Positions 2,159 to 51,667 of a stretch of DNA of 64,000 bases are shown one piece after another. Origin of the DNA: an archaeon (lineage in GTDB: Archaea; Nanobdellota; Nanobdellia; Pacearchaeales; GW2011-AR1); contig DAHWKL010000002.1 of the NCBI GenBank assembly GCA_027343665.1, forward strand, positions 109,386 through 173,385, written 5' to 3'. The notes under the pieces were generated by a model. That model had not been told where the DNA came from and made no database searches. It saw only the letters and a list, made by a program, of their open reading frames with translations. The stretch's first letter is position 1; each line of letters begins with the position of its first letter. A program made the position numbers and the translations under genes.

Positions 2159-3037
2159 TTATTTAGAAGTGTTTACCACATTATCTTTCTCGATTAAAAA
2201 AGTGTTCTCAGACTGGGCAACTAATTTCCCTTTCTCTTCCGTAAGAATTGGATATTGATATAATATTCCTTCACCTTCAAGATGATTAAGAGCGAGTATA
2301 GCTCTTGCACCAAATTCTTTTACAACCCACCTAGAAGCAAAAGGCAAAGAACCATAATTATCTTTAACAAATTCCAGAATTTCCCTCCCTAAAGGGTCAC
2401 GTGTATTTTTGTCCTTTTGTAGGATGAAGATGTTCCCTTTTCTTCCTTCATGTATGAGCCCTTTCCCGTCAGTCGCAAAGGGTTCAATTGCATAAAGGCC
2501 TTCATCAAATTCAGTCTGGGAATTATTATCCACATTAGGAACAGTTATCCCAGCATGAAGGTCATATTGTTCCATTGAGTGACCTGAAAGGTTAGCTATA
2601 ACATTAAATCCATAAGATCTTATAGTTTTTTCAATTGCTTCCCCCACCTTACCCAGTGTAGTACTTGAAGACAGGATTTCCTCAGCATTTTTGAGTGCCT
2701 CTTCAGTTGACCTTATAAGTTCTTTGTTTGTTTCAGAATTTTCTAAATCAACAGAAAAAGAATTGTCTGCTATCCAGCCGTCAACTTCAACGCCAAAATC
2801 AACTTTCATAAGCCCTTGTGCAACAGATGTATCATCATATGAAGGAGTGTAATGTGCTGCGTATTCGTTTATTGATAAATTAACCGGAAAGGCTATTCCT
2901 CCTTTAAGTTCATGGATTTTCTTCTCGATTGTTTCAGCAAGTTCCAGGAGCGGGACACCTTTTTTCACTTTAGGCTTAACCCATGATTTGACCTCACTTG
3001 CTATTTTGCCTGCTTTGATTATCTTTTCCTTTTCCAT
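2159..3037 (-). CDS. map: methionine aminopeptidase, type 2 (archaeal/eukaryotic class)
   Basis: 292 aa with a pita-bread fold pattern (KAGKIASEV.., AAHYTP, DFGVEVDG, SGHSM, YAIEPF). Convergent with cdc48, 2-nt gap. Confidence 0.88.
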   Translation of the reverse strand: MEKEKIIKAGKIASEVKSWVKPKVKKGVPLLELAETIEKKIHELKGGIAFPVNLSINEYAAHYTPSYDDTSVAQGLMKVDFGVEVDGWIADNSFSVDLENSETNKELIRSTEEALKNAEEILSSSTTLGKVGEAIEKTIRSYGFNVIANLSGHSMEQYDLHAGITVPNVDNNSQTEFDEGLYAIEPFATDGKGLIHEGRKGNIFILQKDKNTRDPLGREILEFVKDNYGSLPFASRWVVKEFGARAILALNHLEGEGILYQYPILTEEKGKLVAQSENTFLIEKDNVVNTSK

Positions 3038-11750: not shown

Positions 11751-12554
11751 ATGTTTCAGCAGTTCATGGAACACAGATCGTTCAGTCTTTTAGGCAACAT
11801 TGCGATAGTGAATTTCCCGGAAAGAGCATCAGACGAAGAAAAGGCTGAATTCGCAAAAAACCTGCTTGAGAAAAACAGGAATGTGAAGACTGTCCTGGAA
11901 AAATCAGGAAAATTCCACGGAAGACTCAGAAAGCAGGAAACAAGATTTATCGCAGGGGTAAGAACAAAAGAAGTTCTTTACAAAGAAAATGGATGCGTAT
12001 TCAGATTTAATATAGATGAGACTTATTTTTCACCAAGACTGTCAAATGAAAGAAAAGAGATCGCGGGAAAAATAAAGAAAAACGATGAAGTTCTAGTAAT
12101 GTTTGCCGGAGTCGCACCTTTCCCTATAGTGATTGCAAAGAACGCCAAAGCGAAAAAAGTTTATTCGAATGAGCTTAACAGAAAAGCGAATGAGTATGCC
12201 AAAGATAATATTTCAAGGAATAAGCTTAAAGACAAAGTGGAACTTTTGCCCGGAGACATAAAGAGAGTCGCCTTGAAACTTCGAAATGATGGAAAAAAAT
12301 TTGAGGTCATTGTCATGCCACGTCCACAACTTAAAGATTCCTTTCTCAGGGAAGCTTTTGCACTTTCAAAGAAAGGGACAAAAATATATTATTACGATTT
12401 TTGCAAATCCGAAGATATACCTGAAAAGGTTAAGATGATAAAAGATGAAGCTCAAAAAGCAAAAAAGAAAATAAAGATTTTTAGTATAAAACATGCCGGG
12501 GAACTTTCACCTTCAAAAAGAAGGATAAGGGTGGATTTCAAAGTGGAAAATTGA
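11751..12554 (+). CDS. trm5: Trm5/Taw2-type (Met-10+ like) tRNA methyltransferase
   Basis: 267 aa. Carries FSLLGNIAIVNF, YFSPRLSNERKEI, the SAM site VMFAGVAPFPIVIAKN, NELN and GD blocks of the Trm5/Tyw2 family. Confidence 0.8.
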   Translation: MFQQFMEHRSFSLLGNIAIVNFPERASDEEKAEFAKNLLEKNRNVKTVLEKSGKFHGRLRKQETRFIAGVRTKEVLYKENGCVFRFNIDETYFSPRLSNERKEIAGKIKKNDEVLVMFAGVAPFPIVIAKNAKAKKVYSNELNRKANEYAKDNISRNKLKDKVELLPGDIKRVALKLRNDGKKFEVIVMPRPQLKDSFLREAFALSKKGTKIYYYDFCKSEDIPEKVKMIKDEAQKAKKKIKIFSIKHAGELSPSKRRIRVDFKVEN

Positions 12555-20074: not shown

Positions 20075-22063
20075 TCATTTAACGAGAACCATCTTGCCAA
20101 GTTCAGATTCAACCTTTGAATCCTTTTCTTTCTCTTCGAGTCTGTAAAGATAAACTCCTGAAGGGAATCCTGTCATGTCGACTTCGAATCTGTATTCGCC
20201 CGGAACCTTATATCCGCCTTCAATTGCTTTTACTTTTTGTCCAAGGATATTGTAAATATCAATCCCTACTTCTCCTGGCTTTGCCAAATCATACATTATC
20301 GTCGTTGTAGGATTGAAAGGGTTTGGATAATTCTGATATATCTGAAATTTCTTTGGAAGAAGAGGGTCTCTCTCATTCACAGCAGTCACATTTTCCACTT
20401 CTATAAGCTCGTCAGCTGAAGCCTTCAGCGTATCGCCATATGTGGTCACGAAATCCGTGAAAGTCCTTGTGAATGCGTAAGCTGTGGTTTTGTGAGTCTT
20501 ATCGGGGGATAATGTTGTATCTGCCCACACAGTATCATGATCGGTGTAATAAAGCCCCAAAGGAGCGGTTGTGTTCACTTTTGAAGTGTCAGGGAAAGCG
20601 TCAGGATATCCGTTTTGGAAAAGATATTGCGGAGTGAGAGCCTGACCTGAAGGGACTCTTCCTGCATCAACTACGAGAGTGTCAAGACTAGAACCATTTT
20701 TGTTTTTTATATCAACTTTCACAGCTGAACTTAAAATATTCCCATATTTCACATTTGTAGAAGCTGATGAATCCACTTTTGTGACTCCACCTGAAGTTAT
20801 CCATGTGTAAAATCTGTATGGAACAATCATGCTTGTGCTGTCAGCTGACCAGGTTGTGTCTCCCGTCACATAGGAAAGATTAGGAGGAAGTTTTGTGCTG
20901 TCAGCAGATATTGAAGGCACGACATTGAACCCAAGATTCTCAAGGCCCGAAAGGCTCATATCTGCTTTTGACGGAACTTTTGATCCGTCAACATCAACAC
21001 TGTCAGGCAATCCGCTTTCATGAACCCGAATGATATTTGGATTGTCCATAACAAAAGAATTTTCGGGATGATTTCGAGCATTATAATAACTAACCATTGT
21101 TCCTTCTCCATTCTTTAATTTAAATACAACGATTCCTGGCATATAACCAAAATACTTATTATGATTCTCTGCATCTTGAAGATAGGTATATTTCCCAATA
21201 AATACAGCCGAATCTGGATTCATATCATTACTACCTGGAGTAACATGATAAAGATAATAATTTCCGACAGTTCCCCCAATATAAAATGCATATATATTAG
21301 AAAAAGTCGTATCGGGTTTATCCACAAAAACTCCCGCAACAGCATGAGGACTTCCCCCAACATCATAATCATTCACTGTAAAAACGGGAATATTAAATCT
21401 TGCAGGAGTAACTTCACCACTTAAATCAATGCCTGTATTTTCTTTATACCAAGTTAGAAATGCACTTTGATTCGAGACACCATAAAAATCATCTTCATAT
21501 CTGGCTACAAAATTCTGGCAAAGCCAATCTTTAGTATCCCCTGCAGTAGGATAACCTGGGGGCATTGCAGATTCAATTTTCATCATTTTCTCAAGCCAAG
21601 AAACTCTCTCAGCCCTTGTGGTCAAAGAGTCCCAATATCCTGGAAGATAAGGTATTGTGTGATTTAGGTACTCTTGAATCAAATCTGCATCAGATTGGTT
21701 GACAACGCCATCGCCGTTTACATCTGCTCTGTCAAGATCCTGTGGGGGGACATTTCCGGATTCAATAATCTTGACATCTGTTGAATCAACTTTCCCGTCA
21801 TCATTTACATCTCCTGAGCCATACCAATCAAGAGGCCCTCTTCCAAGTTGTACTTGTATATTTGGCTGTGAATAAGGATTCATGAGTACTGGCCATGGCG
21901 TAGGACCATTGACAGTCATCTGAGGAATTGCAGTTGAGGGAGCAGGCCCGATTATCGGATTGCTGTCAAGAAACTGCTGCGCTTTTGCTTTTATAGGCAT
22001 AAGCGTTGCTAACGCGATAGCGCCGACCCCGAGATATTTAGCTAAACCTCTTAACTTTTTCAT
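20075..22063 (-). CDS. secreted dockerin-repeat protein with T9SS/FlgD-Ig-type C-terminal domain
   Basis: 662 aa with a signal peptide (..PIKAKAQQ). Two Ca-binding dockerin loops, DVNDDGKVDSTD and DVNGDGVVNQSD (nt 21668-21814). The last 95 aa (nt 20075-20362), QNYPNPFNPTTTIMYDL..IDIYNILGQKV..SGVYLYRLE, match the Por/T9SS C-terminal sorting-domain pattern. Confidence 0.8.
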   Translation of the reverse strand: MKKLRGLAKYLGVGAIALATLMPIKAKAQQFLDSNPIIGPAPSTAIPQMTVNGPTPWPVLMNPYSQPNIQVQLGRGPLDWYGSGDVNDDGKVDSTDVKIIESGNVPPQDLDRADVNGDGVVNQSDADLIQEYLNHTIPYLPGYWDSLTTRAERVSWLEKMMKIESAMPPGYPTAGDTKDWLCQNFVARYEDDFYGVSNQSAFLTWYKENTGIDLSGEVTPARFNIPVFTVNDYDVGGSPHAVAGVFVDKPDTTFSNIYAFYIGGTVGNYYLYHVTPGSNDMNPDSAVFIGKYTYLQDAENHNKYFGYMPGIVVFKLKNGEGTMVSYYNARNHPENSFVMDNPNIIRVHESGLPDSVDVDGSKVPSKADMSLSGLENLGFNVVPSISADSTKLPPNLSYVTGDTTWSADSTSMIVPYRFYTWITSGGVTKVDSSASTNVKYGNILSSAVKVDIKNKNGSSLDTLVVDAGRVPSGQALTPQYLFQNGYPDAFPDTSKVNTTAPLGLYYTDHDTVWADTTLSPDKTHKTTAYAFTRTFTDFVTTYGDTLKASADELIEVENVTAVNERDPLLPKKFQIYQNYPNPFNPTTTIMYDLAKPGEVGIDIYNILGQKVKAIEGGYKVPGEYRFEVDMTGFPSGVYLYRLEEKEKDSKVESELGKMVLVK

Positions 22064-22203: not shown

Positions 22204-25098
22204 TTACCTTCTCTTCGTAGTTTTTCTTCTAATGGCAAAAGTCTTCTTTCTTTTGGCTTTTACCTCAAACAAAATATAAAGAACAAAGATTATCAAAACA
22301 GCGACGATTGCATTCTGCCAATCAAAGAAACTCAGCTGAACCTGAGCGGGGCAAGGTATAACCGCGCTTCCGCTTTCACATGAGAATCCATTTGGAAGAC
22401 AGTGATAAGAGGTTGTACCATATAATCCGCAGATTCCATTGCTACAAACTCCGTTGCAATTAGCATTTGTGTAAGTATTATTATCCCAGACAATCTGAGC
22501 AGTCCATGAGGAATTTATCAGCTGACTGTTAGAGCAATCTTCACTCACAGGATTTTGAGTTATCTGGCATGAGACTCCTGTTCCTTGTGCAGCACTTCCG
22601 CCTGAAGTTCCAAGACCGCAAGCGCCAGCAGCACTATTCCACGAGCAAAAAGCATTCACTCCTGCAGGAGGATTTGAACCATAATCAACAAGATATGTGG
22701 CAAGTGAAACATTGCATCCGCCTACTCCATTCACATCTGCATTGCACCAGCTTTGCGCATTTGATAGTCCTACATTTGTTGAGGTATAATCAGTGCAGAA
22801 GCTTACAGAAGCACATTGCGACTTATTGACGGGTGCTGGAGAGCATTGCCCTCCACAACTGGAATCAGCATAGCAGCCATTTCCGACAGAATTACATGAA
22901 GGATCAACTTCACACAATCCGCCACCGCTTCCACTACAAGAATAATATGTTTGTGCTGAGCTTGTCACACTCAGCGTCGGGCTCGTATAACTTCCCAGTA
23001 CAAAAAAGAAATTGTATGTCCCGCTGTTTGAGGTTACCGCAGGATTATTCAAAACATTGCTGTTAAGAGTCCATGTATTGCTGCTCACAGTGTCAGAACC
23101 GCTCACTCCGCCTGAGAATGTTCCTAAGTTAACATTGTTATAAAAAGAGCAGGCAAGGAATCCACAGGAATAATTCTTTTCATAAAGGGTGAAAGTTCCG
23201 CCAGAAGCATAATTCTGAGCATAAAGGTATAAGGGTATTCCACTTGAAACAGAAGAGCTTGAATAAGAAGATTGTGATGGAGTTCCTGAACCATCAATTG
23301 CAAAATACAAACTTGGCGGAACGCAGGCAGAGCCGTCCCAGGTATATCCAGAGTTACACAGATAACATTGCTGTCCTACAGTTGAGCAATAATAGGATGC
23401 ATTATTATAAGCATTTGTAGGATTTGAGGGATTTCCGACATAACCACAAAAACCCGTATAAACTGTACCTTTTTGGGCGAGAGGACACTCAGGGAGGCAC
23501 ACTGTTCCGTTGTAAGTAAATCCAGGGTTACAGAAATAACAACTTTGGCTTGAGGGGCATAAATAGGAAGAATTGAGTTGCGCATTTTGAATAGGTGAAG
23601 AAGAACATCCCGCATTTCCTGTTCCGATAGTAGCAGAAGGACATGAAGTTCCGCAAGAAGTTGTAGAAGCTACTGCTGTAGCACTTAACGGACCACATGC
23701 ATTATTTGATCCCCCACATGCCTGAGCTTGATAACTATAAGTTGTCCCGCAATTCAACCCAGTATTATAATAAGATGCACCAGAAGGAACCGTTTTTATT
23801 AATGTGCCATTCCTGAAAACATTATAACTAGTAGCCCCCGAAACTTGTTGCACTGAGACATATATTGATGTTTGATAGGGAGTTAAACTCGGAGCGAGAA
23901 GACTGCATGCTCCAAGACCCCCTGCAACTGAAGAGCATCCATTACTACAGATATAACCCGAATTAGTGCCCAAAGTGCCTCCCCCGAATGTACCACTACT
24001 GCAATAATATTCCGTTAATTCAATCCTTGTAGAACATTGATCCGGATAGGGTGAATTTGTAGAAACCCCAGTCATATAACCTTGAGGACTTACCTGGTAA
24101 GTTGTCAGCGTTGCAGTTCCTGGGATATATGGATAATTCCCGTCCGTATCAGAGCACAAAGAAGTTGGAAGGCATTGATAATTGTAAGTCTGATTCACAT
24201 CATAACACCCTTGACTTGAATAAGCGGAACATTGACTTTGGGTAAATCCATAGCAACTCGTATTATATGAATATGTAGATTGAGGGTTCCATGTGCAACC
24301 TGCCGTATTCATACATGTAGTCTTGTCAAGACCCCCGCAGGTATTAGTAGCTAAAGGAGTATAACTGTTGGGAACATTTGGATTACTAGATAATGTACCT
24401 GTAGGTGTTCCCGTACAGTAAGCAGGGACGATTGAAGTCGTGACATACTGACCTCCGCAATAAGAGAACGTTGGGCTTGTTTGATTTAAAGCTGTTCCCG
24501 AAGGACATAAACAGGAATATTGAGGAGTACACCCAGAAGTGGATCTGCACGAAGTTTCATCCGGTATGCTACTGCATGAAGAAGATGAACTAGGTAACCA
24601 TGTACAATATGGCTGGTTTGACAAACATTGTGAAGAATCATAGGAATAACAATAAATACCATTAGCTATTGCAGCGGATTTGCAAGTCACATTGCCGCAC
24701 ATCGCATTTGCAAAATCACAACTACCGCTGTATGAAGTCCATGAACAAGGATTTGTAGTTCTCGAAGTGCAACCGATAGGGCAATTTGGACTCATGAAAG
24801 ATGAGCAAGGTTCATTGCCTGTTGTTGTCGTGGTTCCACCACAAGTGTCATAATAAGAAGCAGTACATTGAGATTGACTCAAGCCACTGCAAAAATTGGA
24901 ATCATAAGTGCTACCAGTATAACTTGAGCTTAGTGTACAAGAGGAACCTGTATAATATCCGCTACAACCAAGATAACTGACAGTCTGACCTTGGGTACAC
25001 GTCGTCGCGGAGACATTTTTCGCCATTGAAACGACTGATAAAAATAGGAAGAATGCTAATAACAGAAATAAACTAAACAATTTCACACTCTTTTTCAT
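22204..25098 (-). CDS. giant Cys/Ser/Thr/Gly/Tyr-rich surface protein with C-terminal TM anchor
   Basis: 964 aa. Signal peptide, about 74 Cys by hand count, and almost no Lys/Arg/Glu outside the termini. One FN3-like module (SGATSYNVFRNG..GTTYSYQAQA). Tandem EGF/furin-like repeats of the form Y(L/Y)C..Q(S/Q)CY(F/L)CN(P/S)G(F/Y)T(Y/W)(N/D)G..C(L/V)P. C-terminal TM helix plus a KAKRKK..RRKTTKRR tail. Confidence 0.8.
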   Translation of the reverse strand: MKKSVKLFSLFLLLAFFLFLSVVSMAKNVSATTCTQGQTVSYLGCSGYYTGSSCTLSSSYTGSTYDSNFCSGLSQSQCTASYYDTCGGTTTTTGNEPCSSFMSPNCPIGCTSRTTNPCSWTSYSGSCDFANAMCGNVTCKSAAIANGIYCYSYDSSQCLSNQPYCTWLPSSSSSCSSIPDETSCRSTSGCTPQYSCLCPSGTALNQTSPTFSYCGGQYVTTSIVPAYCTGTPTGTLSSNPNVPNSYTPLATNTCGGLDKTTCMNTAGCTWNPQSTYSYNTSCYGFTQSQCSAYSSQGCYDVNQTYNYQCLPTSLCSDTDGNYPYIPGTATLTTYQVSPQGYMTGVSTNSPYPDQCSTRIELTEYYCSSGTFGGGTLGTNSGYICSNGCSSVAGGLGACSLLAPSLTPYQTSIYVSVQQVSGATSYNVFRNGTLIKTVPSGASYYNTGLNCGTTYSYQAQACGGSNNACGPLSATAVASTTSCGTSCPSATIGTGNAGCSSSPIQNAQLNSSYLCPSSQSCYFCNPGFTYNGTVCLPECPLAQKGTVYTGFCGYVGNPSNPTNAYNNASYYCSTVGQQCYLCNSGYTWDGSACVPPSLYFAIDGSGTPSQSSYSSSSVSSGIPLYLYAQNYASGGTFTLYEKNYSCGFLACSFYNNVNLGTFSGGVSGSDTVSSNTWTLNSNVLNNPAVTSNSGTYNFFFVLGSYTSPTLSVTSSAQTYYSCSGSGGGLCEVDPSCNSVGNGCYADSSCGGQCSPAPVNKSQCASVSFCTDYTSTNVGLSNAQSWCNADVNGVGGCNVSLATYLVDYGSNPPAGVNAFCSWNSAAGACGLGTSGGSAAQGTGVSCQITQNPVSEDCSNSQLINSSWTAQIVWDNNTYTNANCNGVCSNGICGLYGTTSYHCLPNGFSCESGSAVIPCPAQVQLSFFDWQNAIVAVLIIFVLYILFEVKAKRKKTFAIRRKTTKRR

Positions 25099-25128: not shown

Positions 25129-25228
25129 TATTTTGTTGATAAGAGCTTTGTTTAATAAGTAGTTTTTGTTTAAAATTTCATTAAAAGATATATGAAAGAT
25201 TTTTATAGCTTTATCAGTTAAAAATTGC

Positions 25229-26137
25229 GTGAAAGCAAAAAAGACATTGACTTCCTTTTTGAGTTCTGCAATGATATTGACATTGACAGAAAGAGCAATT
25301 GCGCAAAATAAAGCTAATACTCTAGACATAGGAAAAAATCCGCACCAGACAGAACAGATTCTTGGCTTGAATGATGATTTCAAGATGGATTACAGTACCA
25401 AGGTGTCTGTTCCAATCCTGCCGGCTGGAAGGAGCACGGCAATATGGGAGAGTGAATCATGTGATTCTATTCCGAGCATGAAAGAAAATCATAGTGTCAT
25501 GAAAGTTCTCAATGGGGAAGCGACGCTTGTTATACCAATATTCTTCCTTAAGAATGTGAAAGTCCAATACAGGACATACGTTGACAGCCTCGGAAGGCCA
25601 ATTGAAAGCATGCTTGTCGATTATAACTGCTCCCAGCATGAATTTTCACATCTTGACAGCACAATAATAAAAGAAGAATTCCCGGAAAGATGGAAAGACA
25701 TAAGAGGCTTTTACAGAGACCAGTTCAATTATAAAGAAGGTATCATCACTGACAGCCACGGGAAAGAACATCCGCTGGATTCATCATTCACAGACGTGCA
25801 GACAACTTATTTTTCCGTATGCAATATGATAAAAGATGCTCAATCCGGAAAGATTCAAATGCCTTTTGACACGACACTCAATATTTTTGATGATTCTGTA
25901 GCGTACAAATTCCGTCTAAAGGCAGAGAATGGTGAAAAGAAAGATAGTAATTATATAAAAGCTTCAGCAAGATTGGAAAGTTTAAGCGGAGGAAAACCTT
26001 CATTCATTATGAAGAGCATAGATAATATCACTTTCTTCATAAACAAGAAAAATTATATTCCAGAACGCATAAAAGTTAATCTGTTCTCAGGAGCAGCATC
26101 CGCAGACATCAGATTAAAAAGCTATGAAATAAAATAA
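25229..26137 (+). CDS. secreted hypothetical protein
   Basis: 302 aa with a GTG start and a signal-peptide-like N-terminus (..ILTLTERAIAQ). A TATA-like TTTTATAG at 25201-25208 lies 24.5 nt upstream. No recognisable domain. Confidence 0.55.
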   Translation: MKAKKTLTSFLSSAMILTLTERAIAQNKANTLDIGKNPHQTEQILGLNDDFKMDYSTKVSVPILPAGRSTAIWESESCDSIPSMKENHSVMKVLNGEATLVIPIFFLKNVKVQYRTYVDSLGRPIESMLVDYNCSQHEFSHLDSTIIKEEFPERWKDIRGFYRDQFNYKEGIITDSHGKEHPLDSSFTDVQTTYFSVCNMIKDAQSGKIQMPFDTTLNIFDDSVAYKFRLKAENGEKKDSNYIKASARLESLSGGKPSFIMKSIDNITFFINKKNYIPERIKVNLFSGAASADIRLKSYEIK

Positions 26138-26140
26138 ATT

Positions 26141-27541
26141 TCATCCTATTATAACTATAAAAGGTTTTAACTTTGCGACTTTTTTCGAGATTCCCAAAGC
26201 TTCAACAACTTTGACAACACCCTCGATATCTTTGTAAACTTCTGGGGATTCTTCAGCAATGAGCCTCGAACTTCCTGATTTCACTATTATATTCTTTTCA
26301 AGAAGTTTTTTCCTTGTGGATTCACCTTTAAGAGTCCTGACTGCATTTGACCTTGACATTTTCCTGCCAGCTCCGTGGACAGATGAACCGAAAGTCAGGT
26401 CTTCTGACCTCTTCTCACCTGCAAGAACATAAGATGCTGTTCCCATCGAACCAGGGATTATAACAGGCTGTCCTACAGATTTGTATTTTTTTGGTATTTC
26501 TTTTCTTCCGGGCCCGTAACTTCTCGTAGCGCCTTTCCTGTGCACGCACAGTTTCATCTTCCTGCCGTTCACTGAATATTCCTCGATCTTTGCGATATTG
26601 TGGCACACTTCATAAAGAACTTCTATTTTCGCTTCCGGGAAATGGTTTTTCATTTCTTCCCTTAGAAAATAGAGAAGGATCTGCTTGTTCGCAAAGGCGA
26701 AGTTCGCGGCGGCGGCCATAGCGGCGAGATATTCCCTGCCCAACTTTGAATCGACAGGCGCCGCCGCTAATTCTCTATCAGGAAGATTTTCTATACCATA
26801 CTCATCTTCCATTTTTTTTATATAATCGGATGCGACCTGATGCCCTAAGCCACGTGAGCCGCAATGAATCAGTATGACAACCTGGCTTTTTTTTAACCCA
26901 TAAACTTTCGCAACATCAGGGTCAAATATTTTCTCGACAGACAAAAAATCAAGAAAATGGTTTCCTGCACCTATTGTTCCGAGCTGACCTATCCCTCTTT
27001 TTTTCGCTTTCTGCGAGACTAAAGATGAGTCAGCTCCGGGCATACACCCTTCTTCTTCACAATAGATATAATCGTCAGGAATACCATAACCTTTCTCGAC
27101 CATGTATTTAGCTCCTTTTTTCAAAACTTCGTCAAGTTCTTTGTAAGTTATCTGGAAAGGACTTCCTCGCCCTACGCCTGAAGGAATTTTTTTGTTCATG
27201 GCTTCGGCAAAAACTTCTTCTTTTCCCTTGAAATCTTTAATGGACAGGTTTGTCTTGAGAAGGAGGACTCCGCAATTGATGTCATAACCCACCCCCCCAG
27301 GAGAAATAACACCTTTTTTTATATCAAAAGCTGCAACACCGCCTATGGGAAAACCATACCCCCTATGGCAATCTGGAAGTGCAATGGACTCGCCGATTAT
27401 TCCGGGAAGCTTTGCGACATTTTTCACCTGTTCAATTGTCTTGTCTTTTTTTATCTCTTCATAATCTTCTTCTGAAGAATAGACAATTCCCGGAACATTC
27501 ATCCCAGCTTCTTTAACGATATCATGACGGTAATTTTCCAT
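26141..27541 (-). CDS. rtcB: RNA-splicing ligase RtcB
   Basis: 466 aa. GGVGYDINCG, GAGNHF, HCGSRGLGHQ and HGAGR metal/GMP-His motifs. Confidence 0.95.
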   Translation of the reverse strand: MENYRHDIVKEAGMNVPGIVYSSEEDYEEIKKDKTIEQVKNVAKLPGIIGESIALPDCHRGYGFPIGGVAAFDIKKGVISPGGVGYDINCGVLLLKTNLSIKDFKGKEEVFAEAMNKKIPSGVGRGSPFQITYKELDEVLKKGAKYMVEKGYGIPDDYIYCEEEGCMPGADSSLVSQKAKKRGIGQLGTIGAGNHFLDFLSVEKIFDPDVAKVYGLKKSQVVILIHCGSRGLGHQVASDYIKKMEDEYGIENLPDRELAAAPVDSKLGREYLAAMAAAANFAFANKQILLYFLREEMKNHFPEAKIEVLYEVCHNIAKIEEYSVNGRKMKLCVHRKGATRSYGPGRKEIPKKYKSVGQPVIIPGSMGTASYVLAGEKRSEDLTFGSSVHGAGRKMSRSNAVRTLKGESTRKKLLEKNIIVKSGSSRLIAEESPEVYKDIEGVVKVVEALGISKKVAKLKPFIVIIG

Positions 27542-27562
27542 GCATTAATCCGGTAAAAGATG

Positions 27563-27570
27563 TTTAAATA
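27563..27570 (-). promoter_or_regulatory. TATA box for rtcB (leaderless)
   Basis: Minus-strand TATTTAAA centred 25.5 nt upstream of the ATG at 27541. Confidence 0.5.
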
Positions 27571-27594
27571 AGTTGGTTCTAATCCCCCAGAATG

Positions 27595-28281
27595 TCAAAA
27601 TTTTTTGGAAAGCATTTTTATTCTTTCTATCTCCATTACTCTTGCAAAATCCATTGCCCCCCGGATTTCATTTCCAAATTCATAGATGCCTTTTTTTGTC
27701 AGAATCACAAGATCAAGTCCGTTTGTGTGGATATCTTTAGAAGCTCTTTCAAGAGCAGAGGCAACAAGGTTAATCCCATCTTCAATAGAAGTCAATTGAG
27801 ATATTAAACTGCTTTTGCTCTCTAAGTAATCTATGGCATATTGACTGCCTGATCCGTCAGCATCATAAGGTTTCTCCTCAACCTTGCCAAGTTGCCAGCA
27901 CAGGTAAAGTTTTGGCTCCCCAAAGCGTGTAGCAAGAAAAGATCTGTTATAATTACTATCTGGCTCCTTATCCTCCCACCTCGCCATATTCAATCCGACA
28001 AGCTCGGGAAAGAATCTATCTCTTATTATTTTTTTCAGATTGAATCTTCCTTCTATGAATCTGCCCATAAACTCTGCATAAGAATTATCTTCAATGCCCG
28101 TCAAGCCCAAAACAGCAGTCCGGTCATTATTGATATAAATTTTCTGGTGATCAGATTTTGTTTCTTCCCTATAGGTTACCTCTCCGTCATCTTTTGAATT
28201 TATGGTAGTCATATTCCTGTCAGATCCGAGTATCACAGAACTTTTTCCTTTTTTGGTGACTAGACCGACCAAAGTTGTCAT
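27595..28281 (-). CDS. divergent proteasome beta-type Ntn-hydrolase homologue (no propeptide)
   Basis: 228 aa. M-TTLVGL..SVILGSDR.. matches TTTVG..V(I/V)LA(A/S)D. HQKIYI fits the K33 region after an insertion, and DGSGSQYA matches the GSGS.YA loop. Thr would be exposed directly after Met removal. Confidence 0.55.
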   Translation of the reverse strand: MTTLVGLVTKKGKSSVILGSDRNMTTINSKDDGEVTYREETKSDHQKIYINNDRTAVLGLTGIEDNSYAEFMGRFIEGRFNLKKIIRDRFFPELVGLNMARWEDKEPDSNYNRSFLATRFGEPKLYLCWQLGKVEEKPYDADGSGSQYAIDYLESKSSLISQLTSIEDGINLVASALERASKDIHTNGLDLVILTKKGIYEFGNEIRGAMDFARVMEIERIKMLSKKF

Positions 28282-28302
28282 AAAGATTTATTTGATAGAC
28301 AT

Positions 28303-28310
28303 TTTTTAAA
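28303..28310 (-). promoter_or_regulatory. TATA box for the proteasome-beta homologue (leaderless)
   Basis: Minus-strand TTTAAAAA centred 25.5 nt upstream of the ATG at 28281. Confidence 0.5.
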
Positions 28311-28341
28311 GATTTATATTCAAAAATGACCAAGATTTAGA

Positions 28342-28752
28342 CTAGACATCGAGAACGACCTGAGCAACCCATCTGCCTTTTTCTCTTCTGATAATCATAT
28401 CACTGTATGTGACTGATTTTATATGGGAATAAATTTTGTATTTTTCTCCTGAATCGCCGTAAAGTTCTCCGGTGAGTTTTAATTTTTTCCTGTCAATTTT
28501 CAGGTTCAAAATCTTAGAAGGGAAAAAATTTTTTGAATCTATAAAAAAAAGTATTTCTTCAAGAAAATTGTAAAAGAGACTTTCGTAATCTTTCCCTGAA
28601 GAACTCACTTCAATCTTTTTTTCCGGAGAGATTCTTTCCTCTGAGACTGAACTTGCAAGTGCAAGAAGCGAATTGGAAAAAACTTCTTCGAGCGTCTTTC
28701 CATAAGCCTTGAATTTTAAATCCGCTGTATGTGACAAAAATTTGAACTTCAT
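28342..28752 (-). CDS. archease (RtcB activator)
   Basis: 136 aa. The N-terminal F(L)SHTADLKFKAYG signature and family-typical length. Confidence 0.88.
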   Translation of the reverse strand: MKFKFLSHTADLKFKAYGKTLEEVFSNSLLALASSVSEERISPEKKIEVSSSGKDYESLFYNFLEEILFFIDSKNFFPSKILNLKIDRKKLKLTGELYGDSGEKYKIYSHIKSVTYSDMIIRREKGRWVAQVVLDV

Positions 28753-28773
28753 GCATCAAAGTAGTCACAATTC

Positions 28774-28781
28774 TTTAAAAA
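28774..28781 (-). promoter_or_regulatory. TATA box for archease (leaderless)
   Basis: Minus-strand TTTTTAAA centred 25.5 nt upstream of the ATG at 28752. Confidence 0.5.
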
Positions 28782-28803
28782 TTGAACGATAAAACAGAAA
28801 AAA

Positions 28804-29223
28804 TCAATGACAGGATAGTTTGACCTTTCGTGGAGAATAATAAGTCGAGTTTGAAAAGACCAGTATCTCTGAAGAATAAACGTCCCCGGCAATATTACTG
28901 TAAATTGGACAATTGTCCTCAAAAGAGCATATGCCCATTTCGCATGAATATCCCAAAAATGAATTATTATCTAGATAATATGAGATGTCAGGAGGAAAAC
29001 TCGTATTATCTGAATATGAAGGCAGCTTAGCTGAAAGCACAGAATTTCGCAAGGTGCTGTTTGTTTCCACGGCGTTCAAAATATTTGTTATACTGTTTTC
29101 GACCCCGACACTGTTTACTTCAGATGCATTGTGATTCCCGATTATAATCATCAAAAACCCCAAGAGGAAGATAAGTGACATGAAAGCTTCTATTATTTTT
29201 ATCCATCCTTTTTTATTCACCAT
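28804..29223 (-). CDS. type IV pilin-like protein (class III signal peptide)
   Basis: 139 aa. MVNKKG/WIKIIEAFMSLIFLLGFLMII: a short basic leader ending in KKG, then a hydrophobic helix. Confidence 0.6.
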   Translation of the reverse strand: MVNKKGWIKIIEAFMSLIFLLGFLMIIIGNHNASEVNSVGVENSITNILNAVETNSTLRNSVLSAKLPSYSDNTSFPPDISYYLDNNSFLGYSCEMGICSFEDNCPIYSNIAGDVYSSEILVFSNSTYYSPRKVKLSCH

Positions 29224-29900
29224 ATCTTCACCCCGAATGTCCCTGTTTCATAAGACCCGTTAAATGAGAGATAGTTTAGTTCAATTGATCCTGCATAGAC
29301 ATTTGTCTCCGGAGTTGGGACACCACCACCTATGATGGTCCCGTTTTTATATTTAAATTCTATATCCATGTCCATGCCGGATGGGACCCCCAGAGCATTT
29401 TTCGTCACATCATAATTCTGGGAAAAGTTTGAAATGAGAGAGATTATATTTTCCTGAAGAACCATTTCCTCTTTCACTTCACTGTCGGGAGAGATAAAGA
29501 TACACCCTGAGCCTGAGAAAGGTTTGCTGTTAACTATTTTGTTTGAATAAAATATTTTTATAAATCCTGTCCCATTAAATGAGACATTCTTGCCGTTCAC
29601 TTGCGAATAAACCGGACCAGAATTACCAATCCCTTCTGATTGACCTCCTGCAATTAATTCGGGGAGGGTGGATTCAAAACACGTCGGACTGCTCGTATTA
29701 TAAAATCTGAGTACCCAAACTTCAGAGGAGACAGAGCTGATTATATTTCCTTCAACAGTTCCAAGGGAATTTTTAGCATTATTTGGATTAATGATTAATG
29801 AAGTCACTAGAAAATATATGAACATGAGCGCGGTTATGAAGAGGGTAAAAGATATTATCATATCCATCTGTGATCCTTTTTTGTTAGATTGGGTTTTCAT
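29217..29900 (-). CDS. type IV pilin-like protein (class III signal peptide)
   Basis: 227 aa. ..SNKKG/SQMDMIISFTLFITALMFIYFLV. Its start overlaps the upstream platform gene by 4 nt. Confidence 0.55.
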   Translation of the reverse strand: MKTQSNKKGSQMDMIISFTLFITALMFIYFLVTSLIINPNNAKNSLGTVEGNIISSVSSEVWVLRFYNTSSPTCFESTLPELIAGGQSEGIGNSGPVYSQVNGKNVSFNGTGFIKIFYSNKIVNSKPFSGSGCIFISPDSEVKEEMVLQENIISLISNFSQNYDVTKNALGVPSGMDMDIEFKYKNGTIIGGGVPTPETNVYAGSIELNYLSFNGSYETGTFGVKIW

Positions 29901-30742
29901 TTTCCGAAGAGAAGATTGGCCAAAGTTGAGACGATAAAGGATATAATCATAAGTGAGAAAGAGTGTTTAACTCCTGCTTTGAAATTACCTTCAGAAAGCT
30001 TTCCGATGGTAATGCCGGTAAAAAAACCCTGAACAAGTATAAGGTAAAGGAATGCGTCTGAGATTTCGGCCTGACTAGTTGACGGATTAACTGGTGTTAT
30101 TCCGGTACCTATTCCAAGAGTTCCCCCAACATTCCCAATTCCGGACACCATGGGAATTATCTGAAATTGAAGGACAAGAATTATGACGATAAAAACAAGG
30201 AATATTATGTATCCTTGGCTCACAAGCGAGGATATTGTTGATTTTCTTTCTTTCTTCAGTCTATCAGTCATGCTTACGGCATTTGCAACCGCATCAAGTA
30301 TACCCCCTATATCACCTCCGGATCTTTCCGCTTGACCAATAAGAATTAAAGACCTAGAGATTGTACTATTGTTCACATCTTTTGAAAAAACATCAAGCGC
30401 TACATTCAAAGAGATCCCAAGAGAAATTTGATTAGCAAGTTTTTTTATGTGAGGGGTAAGATGTCCATAATTTTTATCGGCCATTATCATTATGCTCTTG
30501 CTTATTGGTGTTCCGGTCTTTACGCTTTCAACAAGATTTCTGGCGAATTCCAGGAACATTGCTTCTTTCTCTTGTGAAACTTTGTTTTCATAAAGTATTC
30601 TTATGACAATAGGCAAAGAGCCGAATATAACCGCCAAACCTGCAATAAGAGGGAATATTTTTGCGGGAAGAAGGAATCTGCCTGCCGCTAGCACAGCAAC
30701 AGCTATTCCAACCCCAATTATATCTTTGTCTTTAAGTTCCAT
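29897..30742 (-). CDS. pilus platform protein, TadC/FlaJ-like (T2SS-F domain), second half
   Basis: 281 aa. N-terminal TM pair, a cytoplasmic helical T2SSF-like domain, and C-terminal TM helices. Confidence 0.7.
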   Translation of the reverse strand: MELKDKDIIGVGIAVAVLAAGRFLLPAKIFPLIAGLAVIFGSLPIVIRILYENKVSQEKEAMFLEFARNLVESVKTGTPISKSIMIMADKNYGHLTPHIKKLANQISLGISLNVALDVFSKDVNNSTISRSLILIGQAERSGGDIGGILDAVANAVSMTDRLKKERKSTISSLVSQGYIIFLVFIVIILVLQFQIIPMVSGIGNVGGTLGIGTGITPVNPSTSQAEISDAFLYLILVQGFFTGITIGKLSEGNFKAGVKHSFSLMIISFIVSTLANLLFGK

Positions 30743-32058
30743 TATTTATTCCCCTTCATTTGTAAAAATGCAAGAAATATAATATTAACAACAGAGACAA
30801 CAAGACTTATCACAAAAGATATTGACAGAAAACTCATTGAAACCCCAAGACCACTTATTTTCATTATTATCAAAAGGAGCATAAGGATCATTGGAGCAGC
30901 AATCAAAGTGCTGATGTAGATATCCATAAAAGTCTCAGCGGATCTTGATGCTTTTTCCTGAGCAATTTTGTAGTTGAACAAAAGCGTTTGGGACCTTTCA
31001 TCAAAAAATTCAGCGAGATCGCCCCCGGAAGTTATCGTCGTGGCAAGGCCTGTCAAAAGCTCTGAAAGCTCTTTGCTAGGGCTGTTTTTTGCGGTGTTCT
31101 TCAGTGCGCTAACAAGATCATAACCATACAAATTTATTTCATTTATCATTTTAATGAACTCTTTTTTCAGGGCTGGATATTCATTTGTCATTATGAGTAT
31201 CTCGAAAATTCTGACTGGATCCATCATTGATCCGGATATTGCAGACATGCTTATCGTCGCGAAAGGAAGTTCGGCGTTTATAGCACCAGATGCACTCTCT
31301 TTCTCAAGAGTTGGATAAACATACATGAAAGCAAAAGTGGCTACTGGGCCAACAATTAATATCCAAAAAGTTTCAAAAAAACGCACGTTTATGGGCTGAG
31401 TAGCTCTGGATATTATCGGAAGAGTCGCGGAGAAATTGAAGAAAAGAAAAAAGAGAAATATGAATCCTGAAATGAATATAGAAAGAAAAGTGGTCATGAG
31501 AATTATAGATACATATCCTACAGGGGTATAATTTAAATTTGCCTTTAAGAGTTCATCTTCCATCTTAGCAAAAGAATTTTTGGATAAGAGTTTCAGTGAA
31601 ACTTTGGAAAAAAATCTTGATGAAACCTTTGTGTAATATGATGAATCTTTCTTCTTTTTTTTCAACTCTTCTTCTTTTTCTTTTTGCTTCTTCTTTTTTA
31701 TTCTCTTGACAGTTTCATTCTCAAGCTCATCAGGGAGTATTTCCTTGAGAGAGAATATTTTTCCTCCTTTTGTCATCAGTTTAGAATCAGAATCAGGTCT
31801 AAGGGAATCTTTATCAAGTTCTTTTTCTATCTGCGTCGGATCCAAAAGTTTCTCAAAAAGGATTCGGTCAAAAAAAACTTTAAACTCGGAGAGGACATCC
31901 TTGAATTTCTTTTCAAGACTTTTCATATGAGAGTCAAATATTCTCTTCTCAGAATCACTTTTTGACATATCACGGAATTTTGAAGTTTTTTCGACTTCAG
32001 CAAAAGCTATTTTGACTTTTTCAATAGATTCAAGAGATTGCCTGTATTCTTCTATCAT
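30742..32058 (-). CDS. pilus platform protein, TadB/FlaJ-like (T2SS-F domain), first half with coiled-coil N-extension
   Basis: 438 aa. About 170 aa of K/E-rich soluble N-terminus, then TM helices, a T2SSF-like cytoplasmic domain and more TM helices. Confidence 0.7.
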   Translation of the reverse strand: MIEEYRQSLESIEKVKIAFAEVEKTSKFRDMSKSDSEKRIFDSHMKSLEKKFKDVLSEFKVFFDRILFEKLLDPTQIEKELDKDSLRPDSDSKLMTKGGKIFSLKEILPDELENETVKRIKKKKQKEKEEELKKKKKDSSYYTKVSSRFFSKVSLKLLSKNSFAKMEDELLKANLNYTPVGYVSIILMTTFLSIFISGFIFLFFLFFNFSATLPIISRATQPINVRFFETFWILIVGPVATFAFMYVYPTLEKESASGAINAELPFATISMSAISGSMMDPVRIFEILIMTNEYPALKKEFIKMINEINLYGYDLVSALKNTAKNSPSKELSELLTGLATTITSGGDLAEFFDERSQTLLFNYKIAQEKASRSAETFMDIYISTLIAAPMILMLLLIIMKISGLGVSMSFLSISFVISLVVSVVNIIFLAFLQMKGNK

Positions 32059-32243
32059 TTCTTTGCTTTACCCACATTACTGTTTAATATGTCTTCAATT
32101 TTTTTCACAGAATCGAGAATGCTTCTCTTACTCTGATTAAATCCTTCTTCGTCACCAGATTTCATAACACCTTTCATCTTTTTCAGATTATCATCGATAG
32201 ATGCAATCAGGCCTTTCACAGAAATTACTTCTTCATTTTCCAT
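32055..32243 (-). CDS. small coiled-coil protein in the pilus operon
   Basis: 62 aa, charged and helical. Overlaps the next gene by 4 nt and starts 5 nt after the ATPase stop. Confidence 0.45.
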   Translation of the reverse strand: MENEEVISVKGLIASIDDNLKKMKGVMKSGDEEGFNQSKRSILDSVKKIEDILNSNVGKAKK

Positions 32244-32248
32244 TTTGT

Positions 32249-33802
32249 TTAGTTCACCCCGAATTTTGCAAGAACTTCCTGGGGCTTTTTGTAATACTCA
32301 TTTATTACATCCTGGACTTCCCTAAAACCAAAAACTTTCTTCTGATAAAGCCTATAAAGAAGCTCTGCCCTTCTCCTGAATTCGACTGAAAGAGCCTCTG
32401 GTGTTATGCCATACCTGTGGTATATCTTCTGGAAAAGACGGCTTTCTTTTTTAAAATAAAATTTATCGTCGGCAGAGTCCCATACGAAGGGGGTATTTGT
32501 GAGAGCTACATCATTTTCTCCTATATTTACCACTTCAACAATTTCACGAAGTTTTCTTGTCTCCTGATTTTTTACTATTGCATGGGTCATGACACACATG
32601 CTATCAAGAACATTCAATAAAGTTGGGGAAAGCTCAATGGGAGGCGTTTCAAGTCTCTTGATAACAGTTTCTATGGAATCAGCGTGAATTGTTGAGATAG
32701 AAGAGTGTCCCGAAGCCATACCCTGAAACAGAACAGAAGCCTCTTTACCTCTCACTTCACCTACAATAACATAATCCGGATTCTGCCTGAATGAAGCTCT
32801 TAAAAGTTCAAACATGTCAATTTCCCCCAGGCCCTTTGTCCCCGTAGCTGAACGAGCGACACTTGGAAGCCAGTTATCTCTCGGAAGGTTAAGTTCACGT
32901 GTATCTTCAATCGAAACAACCCTTGCTTCAGGAGGGATAAAAAAAGCTATTGCATTTAGGAGTGTTGTCTTGCCCGATGCCGTTCCTCCGACAATCAAAA
33001 GGTTCATTTTGTATTGGACTAAAAGCCACATGTAAGCGAGCATCTCCGGACTAAGAGTGTTGAAAGAGATAAGCTGAGGAGGGGTCCAAGGAGTCTTTGT
33101 GAATTTACGTATTGTAAAAGTCGGGCCTTTCGAAGTTACATCTTTTGTATAAGTGGCATTCACCCTTGACCCATCTGGCAAACTCCCATCGAGGATTGGC
33201 TCTGCGTAAGATATGTATTTACCACATCTTTGCGCAAGTTTTTCGACAAAACTTTCAAGAGATTCATTGTCTTTGAATATGAGATTAGTTTTCAGATTTC
33301 TGAAAATTCTATGGACAAGATAAACAGGAGTATTTGCACCATTACATTCTATATCTTCAACAAAATAATCACGGAGGAGAGGCTCGACTTCATTAAACCC
33401 CATAAAGTCTCTCACAAGATAATAATATATTTTTTTGTAGCTTTCGTAGGTAAGTTCTATACCCATCTCTATTGCAAGAAGCTTGAATCTCTTGTCTATA
33501 TATTCAAAAAGAGTCTCATTGCTTCCGCCGATAATCTCCTTGAAATTTATCATACTCCTCATAGCTTTCACCACTTTGTCCCTTGCAGTTTCCTCTTCAT
33601 CTGTTAGTATTGGCTCTTCTATTTCATAGATAACCTCATATTCTTTAGGATCCCAGTAGATATGGACATACGCAAAGGGGGAAATCAGACAATACCTTAT
33701 ATCAATTTTTGTTTTATCATCTATCTTTTTTATGGGGGGGATCCTGGGCGTGAAATCAACAGACACCATCGGATAATCAAGTATTCCAATTTTCTTGGGC
33801 AT
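32249..33802 (-). CDS. type IV pilus/archaellum-type secretion ATPase (FlaI/TadA/GspE superfamily)
   Basis: 517 aa. Walker A GGTASGKTTLLNA, Asp box VSIEDTRE, Walker B DYVIVGEVRG and His box SGHSSISTIHA. Confidence 0.9.
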   Translation of the reverse strand: MPKKIGILDYPMVSVDFTPRIPPIKKIDDKTKIDIRYCLISPFAYVHIYWDPKEYEVIYEIEEPILTDEEETARDKVVKAMRSMINFKEIIGGSNETLFEYIDKRFKLLAIEMGIELTYESYKKIYYYLVRDFMGFNEVEPLLRDYFVEDIECNGANTPVYLVHRIFRNLKTNLIFKDNESLESFVEKLAQRCGKYISYAEPILDGSLPDGSRVNATYTKDVTSKGPTFTIRKFTKTPWTPPQLISFNTLSPEMLAYMWLLVQYKMNLLIVGGTASGKTTLLNAIAFFIPPEARVVSIEDTRELNLPRDNWLPSVARSATGTKGLGEIDMFELLRASFRQNPDYVIVGEVRGKEASVLFQGMASGHSSISTIHADSIETVIKRLETPPIELSPTLLNVLDSMCVMTHAIVKNQETRKLREIVEVVNIGENDVALTNTPFVWDSADDKFYFKKESRLFQKIYHRYGITPEALSVEFRRRAELLYRLYQKKVFGFREVQDVINEYYKKPQEVLAKFGVN

Positions 33803-34317
33803 TATTCGAGCGAAAAGTCAATGTTTTGACTTGCACCTCCATTATTTGAAACGATTAAATTATAAGATGACGAAGAACCTGTTATAACCCCTGAAGTTTT
33901 CTTGCCATTATAAGTAAGATTGAAATTCGGATAATCCCTCTCTATATAAACTGTGTATTCCGAACCGGATTGTGTCGTTATAATCTTGAAATTTCCATCC
34001 ATATAGACTTTCCCCAGCTCACTGTACATATAAGTTCCCTTAAAAAGGAAATCAATTGAATCGGAACTTGAATTTATTGTAAGTGTCCCTTGGGACAAAG
34101 TTAGATCAAGAACCCTTTTGTTTCCCACACCGCTTTGATAGACCTCATTAACTATCGAATCAATCTGCTGAAGAACATTCAAAGACTGATCTATTGTTGC
34201 TTTATCCTGGAGCTCATCTATTTTCGGTTTGACGAAAGCCAAAACAAGACCTATCAATATAAAAGCGATAAGCGTGTAAGTCACAGTTTCCACCCACACT
34301 TGCCCTTTTTTTTTCAT
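33802..34317 (-). CDS. type IV pilin-like protein (class III signal peptide), first gene of the locus
   Basis: 171 aa. MKKKG/QVWVETVTYTLIAFILIGLVLAFV, with Glu at +5 after the predicted cleavage site as in bacterial T4 pilins. Confidence 0.65.
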   Translation of the reverse strand: MKKKGQVWVETVTYTLIAFILIGLVLAFVKPKIDELQDKATIDQSLNVLQQIDSIVNEVYQSGVGNKRVLDLTLSQGTLTINSSSDSIDFLFKGTYMYSELGKVYMDGNFKIITTQSGSEYTVYIERDYPNFNLTYNGKKTSGVITGSSSSYNLIVSNNGGASQNIDFSLE

Positions 34318-51202: not shown

Positions 51203-51667
51203 ATGTCAAAAGAATTCGAAAGATTATTTGGAGAAGATCAAAAAGCGATTGAAACCTGGTCAGCAGGAAAAATGTCAGACAAGGAGTTCAACAAAATCAA
51301 TTCTAAGTTAATAAATGAAGTTGAAAAGCTACTAAAATCCCAAAAGAAAATTTCAGGAAAAGATTATTTCACTGCAGCGATTATTTTTCATCATATGTAC
51401 AAATTACCTTTTTCTAAGAGAGCGGTTGAGTTCGCAAAGATGAGCCATGAATTAGGGTACAAAAAAGGAAAATGGCTCATAACTTCAACGACAGACAGGC
51501 TCTTACAATTAGAGGGTAAACCTCAAAAATTCGGAACCCAAGTTGTGAATATGAAAGCAAAAAGACTAAAACTCTACAAACTCAACCCAAAAACAACAGA
51601 CAAAGAAAGAAAAGAATATGGTCTCCCAACACTCAAACAAATTAAAAAAGAATATAGAGTAAAATGA
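51203..51667 (+). CDS. hypothetical protein, first gene of the mnmA operon
   Basis: 154 aa, helical. A TATA-like CTTAAAAC at 51174-51181 lies 25.5 nt upstream. The stop overlaps the mnmA ATG (ATGA). Confidence 0.45.
   Translation: MSKEFERLFGEDQKAIETWSAGKMSDKEFNKINSKLINEVEKLLKSQKKISGKDYFTAAIIFHHMYKLPFSKRAVEFAKMSHELGYKKGKWLITSTTDRLLQLEGKPQKFGTQVVNMKAKRLKLYKLNPKTTDKERKEYGLPTLKQIKKEYRVK

Follow-up and report, generated by a model that had tools for sequence, protein, structure and literature searches.

Does a proteasome-like protein encoded between the two genes of an RNA-ligase pair belong to RNA ligation, to the 20S proteasome, or to neither? This question is raised by a stretch of a Pacearchaeales contig (the window, 64 kb), in which three co-directional open reading frames (ORFs) on the minus strand encode archease, a 228-aa protein of the proteasome fold, and RtcB. 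Archease is the activator of RtcB. The three genes are located as follows.

27595..28281, minus strand: proteasome-beta-like N-terminal-nucleophile (Ntn) hydrolase without a propeptide, 228 aa (ORF; PF00227, 26.4 bits; TIGR03634, 32.2 bits; structure model)
26141..27541, minus strand: rtcB (3'-phosphate RNA ligase), 466 aa, downstream neighbour (PF01139, E 2.7e-157)
28342..28752, minus strand: archease, 136 aa, upstream neighbour (PF01951, E 7.7e-34)

The gap between archease and the 228-aa gene is 60 nt, and that between the 228-aa gene and rtcB is 53 nt. An earlier note, made from the sequence, had described rtcB and archease as separated by a 228-aa Ntn hydrolase, and both the ORF coordinates and the Pfam matches agree with this description.

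We consider it moderately likely that the 228-aa protein is an accessory, active, beta-derived threonine peptidase of a DPANN clade, which coexists with psmA and psmB and is unrelated to RNA ligation. Judged from its relatives, it represents a distinct non-canonical lineage that is neither a core beta subunit nor functionally tied to rtcB and archease.

The evidence begins at the N-terminus, which reads MTTLVGL. No start codon lies between the upstream in-frame stop and the ATG at 28281, so a propeptide cannot be encoded. With this M-T-T start, Thr1 would probably be freed by ordinary removal of Met and not by autocatalytic cleavage of a propeptide. Initiator Met is generally cleaved off when Thr follows, and the window carries an M24-family peptidase gene at 2159-3037; the M24 family includes methionine aminopeptidases. 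The blocks LGSD (residues 18-21), QKI (46-48), and GSGSQYA (143-149) are all present. In an alignment with beta subunits, T2 corresponds to Thr1, D21 to Asp17, K47 to Lys33, and G62 to Gly47, and the further catalytic equivalents are G143-S144-G145, D183, and T186. For Ser129, Asp166, and Ser169, we assume the roles that the proteasome literature assigns to them. The proteasome-like superfamily is characterized by an N-terminal Thr or Ser nucleophile, Asp17, Lys33, and the oxyanion Gly47, according to Fuchs, Alva & Lupas 2021 (PMC8665760). The nucleophile Thr, Asp17, Lys33, and Gly47 were all aligned in the 228-aa protein. Sequence and model together predict a catalytically competent threonine Ntn peptidase of this superfamily. 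The Thr directly after Met1 without a propeptide and the GSD, QKI, and GSGSQYA blocks, all listed in the earlier note, were thus recovered at the first possible ATG and at the positions given above.

Similarity to known profiles was weak. PF00227 covered only residues 121-188 (26.4 bits), and TIGR03634, the archaeal PsmB equivalog, scored 32.2 bits against a cut-off of 224. The best match among PDB sequences was the M. jannaschii beta subunit (E 1.6e-5), and identity to the beta subunits of related genomes was ~23-28%.

The protein nevertheless belongs to a sizeable family. A word-index search yielded 17 close relatives (222-232 aa), and phmmer against 1.84 billion representatives returned 136 clusters at E <= 1e-3, 79 of them at E <= 1e-10. 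Family proteins are ~220-250 aa long and nearly all start with M-T: among the 111 that are at least 200 aa long, 101 have an M/V-T/S start and 91 have M/V-T-T. In six of the ten remaining proteins the start motif lies a few residues in, probably reflecting mis-called starts. The catalytic positions are strongly conserved in an 86-sequence family alignment, with the equivalents of Asp17 and Gly47 kept in all 86 sequences, Thr1 in 85, those of Lys33 and Ser/Thr169 in 84 each, that of Asp166 in 81, and the three residues of G-S-G in 85, 79, and 84. PF00227 was matched at E <= 0.01 by 42 of 49 members scanned (17-59 bits; 30 over the cut-off), seven had no match at all, and none of the 49 matched any other proteasome-like family. 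In public records, family members appear as 'hypothetical protein' or '20S proteasome alpha/beta subunit'.

The hosts of the family are uniform. All 19 loci found on one-genome-per-species contigs come from DPANN metagenome-assembled genomes (MAGs) labelled Woesearchaeota, Pacearchaeota, Nanoarchaeota, or 'archaeon'. A distant subclade (representative P0117) contributed four more DPANN loci, from Woesearchaeota, Nanoarchaeota, and Parvarchaeota, and a locus search with a further family representative (P0086) found no loci. Every organism-labelled locus (23/23) is therefore from an archaeal DPANN MAG.

We next compared the predicted structure with known ones. The AlphaFold2 model, built from the 86-sequence alignment, had a pLDDT of 95.9 and a pTM of 0.90, and it showed the four-layer alpha-beta-beta-alpha fold of the superfamily, with the S1-S11 core and flanking helices. 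In Foldseek, the top 50 matches were all 20S beta subunits, and at least 500 matches had E <= 0.001. In a structural search of the model against structure representatives (VIA Z scores), 20S beta subunits ranked first (Z 19.0-19.2; S. acidocaldarius beta; 6z46_H, root-mean-square deviation (rmsd) 2.5 Å, 168 residues), and the next 19 rows after the top match were all proteasome-family chains. Second among the structural classes was Anbu (PDB 5LOY; Z 17.8; 185 residues at rmsd 3.0), followed by mycobacterial PrcB (17.2), 20S alpha subunits (16.7-16.9), BPH (15.9), HslV (PDB 1M4Y; 15.4), and Connectase (MJ0548; PDB 6ZW0; 11.8), which scored lowest among the proteasome-like matches. Chains of HslV, Anbu, BPH, and Connectase were not among the 60 best sequence-profile matches in the PDB; as these chains do match structurally, their absence is no evidence against relatedness.

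Relative to canonical beta subunits, the first hairpin turn is three residues longer, the S3/S4 hairpin beside the active site is 11 residues longer (strands 23-32 and 35-44 in the model), and three residues are added between H3 and H4. The H1/H2 region is remodelled, with a shortened H1 and an extra short helix (helices 66-76, 82-88, and 92-102 in the model), and the C-terminal helix (203-226 in the model) extends ~20 residues beyond the end of beta. The earlier note had remarked on insertions and an atypical C-terminus, which are evident both in the alignment with canonical beta and in the model. In the 20S proteasome, beta subunits contact the alpha ring through H1/H2. The long S3/S4 hairpin, the remodelled H1/H2, and the long C-terminal helix of the model suggest that the protein works outside the canonical 20S. 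It may form a particle of its own, or a small oligomer with a narrower choice of substrates.

The site of the main insertion also bears on a quite improbable alternative, in which the protein would be a Connectase-like, sequence-specific transpeptidase, ligase, or amidase with the S3/S4 hairpin as a substrate-selecting lid. Connectase is likewise a propeptide-less Thr1 homologue with a narrow archaeal distribution and an insertion at S3/S4. This is the site of its specificity insertion (PMC8665760), and the sparse, lineage-restricted distribution of the present family resembles that given for Connectase in Table 1 of the same survey. Three residues of the hairpin (T25, G33, and Y37) are conserved in the family. 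However, Connectase was structurally the most distant (Z 11.8 vs 19 for beta). It is without H1/H2, has a two-helix S3/S4 lid, and often carries an extra C-terminal domain (PMC8665760), whereas our model has helices in the H1/H2 region, a beta-hairpin as the insertion, and no extra domain; identity with Connectase itself was rejected on these grounds. In the related locus L002, the homologue (6001-6675) has an S3/S4 hairpin that is four residues shorter and almost wholly different from that of the window protein, which argues against a precisely tuned lid. A conserved nearby gene for a candidate substrate was not found in the loci examined.

To return to the accessory peptidase that we favour, its coexistence with a standard proteasome was judged from relatives. 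PF00227 had two strong matches (140-190 bits) in each of five related genomes, and in all five these two genes are a canonical alpha subunit (MGYDR...TMFSPEGHLLQVEYA) and a beta subunit with a propeptide ending in ...KTG/TT, one of the five beta genes being situated at a contig edge. We then surveyed 201 genomes drawn evenly from the phylum, calling the family by a full-length profile match above 100 bits. The family was found in ten genomes (~5%), all of which also hold a canonical-beta-type match (57-74 bits); three others (G106, G138, and G140) contain further partial or weak family candidates. In these relatives, the family is a sparse third paralogue, extra to canonical alpha and beta. 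Within the window itself, no second PF00227 match turned up among the other 72 ORFs scanned, and the alpha and beta subunits of the closest relative gave no tblastn match at E <= 0.01, in agreement with the remark in the earlier note that no alpha subunit is nearby.

Two assignments were rejected from these data. The protein is not a canonical PsmB (TIGR03634), since it scored 32.2 vs 224 bits and lies outside the beta clade. It would also not be the only beta subunit of its organism, as judged from the propeptide-bearing PsmB in all five relatives and the beta-type match in all ten carriers. The suggestion in the earlier note of a highly diverged core beta subunit is not supported for the same reason, with canonical alpha and beta together in the five relatives.

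Phylogeny separated the family from both canonical subunits, with DPANN alpha and beta sequences plus a single HslV as the only references. A quick IQ-TREE analysis of 99 rows (86 family proteins, seven beta and five alpha subunits from DPANN genomes, and E. coli HslV, b3932, as the outgroup) placed the family alone on one side of a branch with an SH-aLRT support of 97. In a second tree, obtained by a careful search with 43 rows from the loci, the supports were 96-97/81-89 for the family, 97/94 for beta, and 100/99 for alpha, and the window gene and the L002 gene were sisters (99/95). Profile comparison by hhalign, with alpha and beta profiles from small DPANN alignments, gave E 5.9e-21 (probability 99.3%) for family against beta, E 7.2e-8 (94.6%) for family against alpha, and E 8.4e-19 for beta against alpha. 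These values place the family on the beta side, about as distant from beta as alpha is. The clade, seen here only in MAGs of Woesearchaeota, Pacearchaeota, Nanoarchaeota, and Parvarchaeota, would thus descend from the beta-subunit side. Its own clade, the sub-cut-off PsmB score, and the hhalign distance all speak for the non-canonical lineage that the earlier note had raised. That note had also named a finding that would count against such a lineage, namely a protein nested inside ordinary archaeal PsmB with a psmA elsewhere and an unconserved linkage to rtcB and archease. A psmA does occur elsewhere in the relatives and the linkage is not conserved (see below), but the protein falls outside the PsmB clade.

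The same data bear on an unlikely reading, that of an alternative beta subunit ('beta2'). The protein would then join the canonical alpha ring, either as the sole beta-type subunit or together with PsmB, and the resulting 20S would differ in specificity. Some archaea with two beta genes do form 20S particles of altered specificity. The best structural matches of the model are 20S beta subunits, hhalign puts the family much nearer to beta than to alpha, the family retains the complete catalytic set, and a canonical beta co-occurs in every sampled carrier. Moreover, psmB and FttA lie within a few kb of the family gene in L007, L009, L018, and L044. In addition, archaeal propeptides have no known function (PMC8665760). 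On the other hand, identity to related beta subunits is only ~23-28% and the family is as far from beta as alpha is. An additional subunit of this kind would have a hairpin 11 residues longer beside the active site, and, in the model, a shortened H1 with an extra short helix on the very face that is taken to contact the alpha ring. The occurrence of the family in ~5% of sampled genomes also speaks against it.

The gene contexts of the family bear on its origin. We examined the neighbours in a first set of 18 loci with callable neighbours and in an evenly drawn second set. In six of the 18 loci (L001, L007, L009, L011, L015, and L018), a gene for a presenilin-like signal-peptide peptidase (SPP, PF06550) is convergent with and abuts the family gene, and in L016 it is nearby. 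A TrmB-type regulator is encoded divergently upstream in six of the 18, and FttA/aCPSF1 and a canonical proteasome subunit (psmB) follow the family gene in three (L007, L009, and L018). Contexts in the second set were varied and included tRNA synthetases, ABCE1-like and NFACT genes, Lon two genes away, and PD-(D/E)XK nucleases. In L044 (6065-9826; G137:C2), the family gene is directly upstream of psmB and FttA/aCPSF1, co-directional and with short gaps, making this the only locus seen where co-transcription of the paralogue with psmB is possible. Loci with TrmB/SPP(/FttA-psmB) contexts fall on several branches of a large subclade of the tree, and L044 is the sister of this subclade. The older location of the family may have been beside psmB-FttA, and such a location would fit an origin by duplication of psmB.

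These observations can be combined into a more specific account, which we regard as possible but tentative. The family would be an unnamed, DPANN-restricted subfamily that arose by psmB duplication beside psmB-FttA and now serves as a third proteasome-type component, no nearer to beta than alpha is, either as its own particle activated by methionine aminopeptidase or as a modifier of the 20S, in organisms whose proteomes are minimal.

Several results weigh against an accessory, beta-derived peptidase acting outside the 20S. In a comparison of the family profile with PDB sequences, the M. jannaschii beta and alpha subunits scored almost equally (66 and 65 bits), in disagreement with the beta preference seen by hhalign. 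Both trees, which are rooted on one long HslV branch, put the family sister to alpha plus beta and not within beta; they therefore do not show derivation from beta. Proximity to psmB-FttA was seen in only four loci and may be inherited synteny. Finally, work outside the 20S is suggested solely by altered surface elements of the predicted model, read against the general background on H1/H2 docking.

We then asked whether the neighbourhood of rtcB and archease has any meaning for the family. The window RtcB and archease were used as tblastn queries against the 19 loci (three of them short) and 13 further ones; as L033 and L038 are the same place, 31 distinct loci were covered. The two genes were nearby in only one of these, L002, which is the closest relative. 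Compared with the window, the encoded T2SSF protein of L002 is 90% identical, RtcB 82%, archease 69%, and the 228-aa homologue 48%. The low value for the homologue beside those for RtcB and T2SSF suggests unusually fast change in this branch. In L002, a methionyl-tRNA synthetase (MetRS) gene on the opposite strand sits between archease and the homologue, and the adjacency of homologue and rtcB is kept. A 20,338-nt contig from a different study is collinear with 25135-30000 of the window (212 differing letters and three gaps; ~95.6% identical), and this population has the same archease/homologue/rtcB order. At 25135-25168 the same contig has a joint whose two sides are separated by 5,184 other letters. 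In this sister population, ~5.2 kb of other sequence has been inserted or substituted between the genes for a 964-aa secreted protein and a DUF3108-like protein.

Beyond the family, archease was present in 58 of 61 sampled genomes of the phylum. Among 30 archease loci fetched, 18 had rtcB inside the 1.5-kb flank, with gaps of ~10-270 nt, which leave no room for a 690-nt gene. The simplest reading of the archease/homologue/rtcB order is that the gene was inserted once, recently and in this lineage only, between archease and rtcB, which normally form a tight pair. The position of the 228-aa gene would then have no functional meaning.

A functional module with RtcB and archease, for example one in which the homologue processes or controls the RNA ligase, is highly improbable, and the distribution of the family largely refutes it. 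In favour of a module, the genes lie close together in one orientation (gaps of 53 and 60 nt), their order is kept in the ~95.6% identical contig, and the adjacency of the Ntn gene and rtcB is kept in L002. However, none of the other 30 related loci shows this adjacency, ~95% of the sampled phylum genomes are without the family, and in L002 the opposite-strand MetRS gene splits archease from the homologue. Archease in 58 of 61 genomes, together with the 18 of 30 loci where it lies beside rtcB without this gene, indicates that the ligase pair works without the homologue. The link to rtcB and archease implied by the earlier note was accordingly not upheld, and for annotation the rtcB-Ntn-archease arrangement should not be taken as an RNA-repair module.

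Promoter-like boxes before each of the three genes also speak against a module. The candidates are listed below.

28301..28310, minus strand: candidate TATA box of a leaderless mRNA, A/T run TTTAAAAAAT, 20-29 nt upstream of the homologue ATG
27563..27571, minus strand: candidate TATA box, A/T run TTATTTAAA, 22-30 nt before the ATG of rtcB
28774..28783, minus strand: candidate TATA box, A/T run AATTTTTAAA, 22-31 nt before the ATG of archease

Over the whole window, A/T content was highest at -34 to -22 relative to the ATG. An all-A/T octamer occurred in -34..-19 in 32 of 72 genes, whereas adjacent slots gave counts of 12-16 and random positions gave 6.9 +/- 2.5. This pattern looks like that expected of TATA boxes on leaderless archaeal mRNAs. 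The A/T runs and their window-wide enrichment make separate promoters for the three genes plausible. Of the claim in the earlier note that each gene has its own TATA box, the A/T run 20-31 nt upstream of each ATG was therefore found, and separate promoters remain at the level of plausibility from sequence. A scan with a sigma-70 promoter and terminator model, which is unsuited to an archaeon, gave counts at shuffle level.

How does the family compare with known proteasome homologues? It shares with PsmB (PF00227, TIGR03634) the fold, the catalytic residues, and the best Z scores (19.0-19.2). It differs in having no propeptide, in forming a separate clade, in its longer S3/S4 hairpin, remodelled H1/H2, and C-terminal helix longer by ~20 residues, and in coexisting with a true PsmB in a patchy distribution (10/201 genomes). 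HslV (E. coli b3932) resembles the family as a small, stand-alone Thr protease with an M-T-T start, but it is ~50 residues shorter, is without the C-terminal helix and the insertions, scored Z 15.4, and served as a distant outgroup in both trees. HslV acts together with an AAA+ partner, HslU. Group I proteasome homologues are without the C-terminal helix (S12/H5), unlike the present model (PMC8665760). Anbu is closer in structure (Z 17.8) and likewise has no propeptide and a long C-terminal helix; its H5 forms a coiled coil across the dimer (PMC8665760). However, Anbu is bacterial (Table 1, PMC8665760) and the present family is archaeal, with 23 of 23 labelled loci in DPANN; membership in Anbu was rejected by this distribution.

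The usual cast of proteasome evolution comprises alpha, beta, HslV, Anbu, BPH, and Connectase. The 2021 survey added many more propeptide-less homologues, none of known function (PMC8665760). It describes 22 new ones, including archaeal WPH, PHI, and ACC, with C-terminal coiled coils predicted for WPH, ACC, and some PHI, and reports neither an informative gene context nor an AAA+ partner for them. By description only, the present family resembles WPH, ACC, and PHI in being propeptide-less and archaeal, in keeping the triad, and in its predicted long C-terminal helix. The hosts listed for those three groups include Euryarchaeota and Crenarchaeota (PMC8665760), whereas the organism-labelled members of the present clade are all DPANN MAGs. 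None of the terms DPANN, Woesearchaeota, Pacearchaeota, or Nanoarchaeota is used in the main text of PMC8665760. In cluster look-ups and the profile search, no family member carried the representatives of WPH, ACC, or PHI (WP_040339656.1, WP_161937350.1, and WP_012956871.1) or their specific names. Our literature search found no paper on a DPANN-specific proteasome paralogue, and passages of a Nanobdellota preprint from 2026 contain no more than a brief reference to 'a proteasome subunit'. The family thus joins an already known kind, the stand-alone propeptide-less proteasome homologues, and we place it beside the 2021 subfamilies by description only. The clade adds a well-defined case to this kind, with a high-confidence model, an intact active site, and 136 clusters, in ultra-small archaea that keep the standard proteasome. 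At 228 aa and without a propeptide, the protein is a tractable target for studying the role of accessory Thr proteases.

A role in mobility or defence was also considered and rejected. None of six members matched PADLOC; in PHROGs, three of the six weakly matched 'peptidase HslV family' and nothing else was matched; and none of 33 viral-contig stretches matching a search pattern encodes a relative. PemK, MazE, LAGLIDADG, and PD-(D/E)XK nucleases were occasional and inconsistent neighbours of family genes.

The remainder of the window is archaeal in content, with CDC48, PolB, FEN1, RFC, MCM, TBP, eIF1A/eIF2-beta, FtsZ, and archaeal pilus genes at ~36% G+C. Its CDC48-type AAA ATPase gene lies at 24-2156; to our knowledge, such ATPases are ubiquitous in archaea. 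Directly upstream of archease, 28804-34317 on the minus strand holds an archaeal type IV pilus-like cluster of two small pilin-like ORFs, two T2SSF-type membrane proteins, and a T2SSE ATPase, and this block also precedes archease in L002. The 964-aa protein mentioned above (22204-25098, minus strand) is rich in Cys, Ser, Thr, and Gly and matches no Pfam family. It has a signal-like segment at the N-terminus and a membrane anchor at the C-terminus, and it is probably a surface protein of DPANN. A 662-aa protein (20075-22063, minus strand) has both a dockerin type I domain and, at its C-terminus, a Por/T9SS-type sorting domain (PF18962), a secretion tag of bacterial style in an archaeal genome. 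At the end of the window (61108-63841), a GmrSD-type restriction endonuclease (724 aa) lies beside a fragment similar to the C-terminal portion of an Eco57I-type methyltransferase; the two form a small defence island. An MnmA-type tRNA 2-thiouridylase (PF03054, E 1.7e-74), a tRNA modification enzyme of bacterial type, is encoded at 51664-52791 on the plus strand and is followed by a methyltransferase; other tRNA-modification genes in the window are TYW2/Trm5 (11751-12554) and TYW3 (57002-57574).

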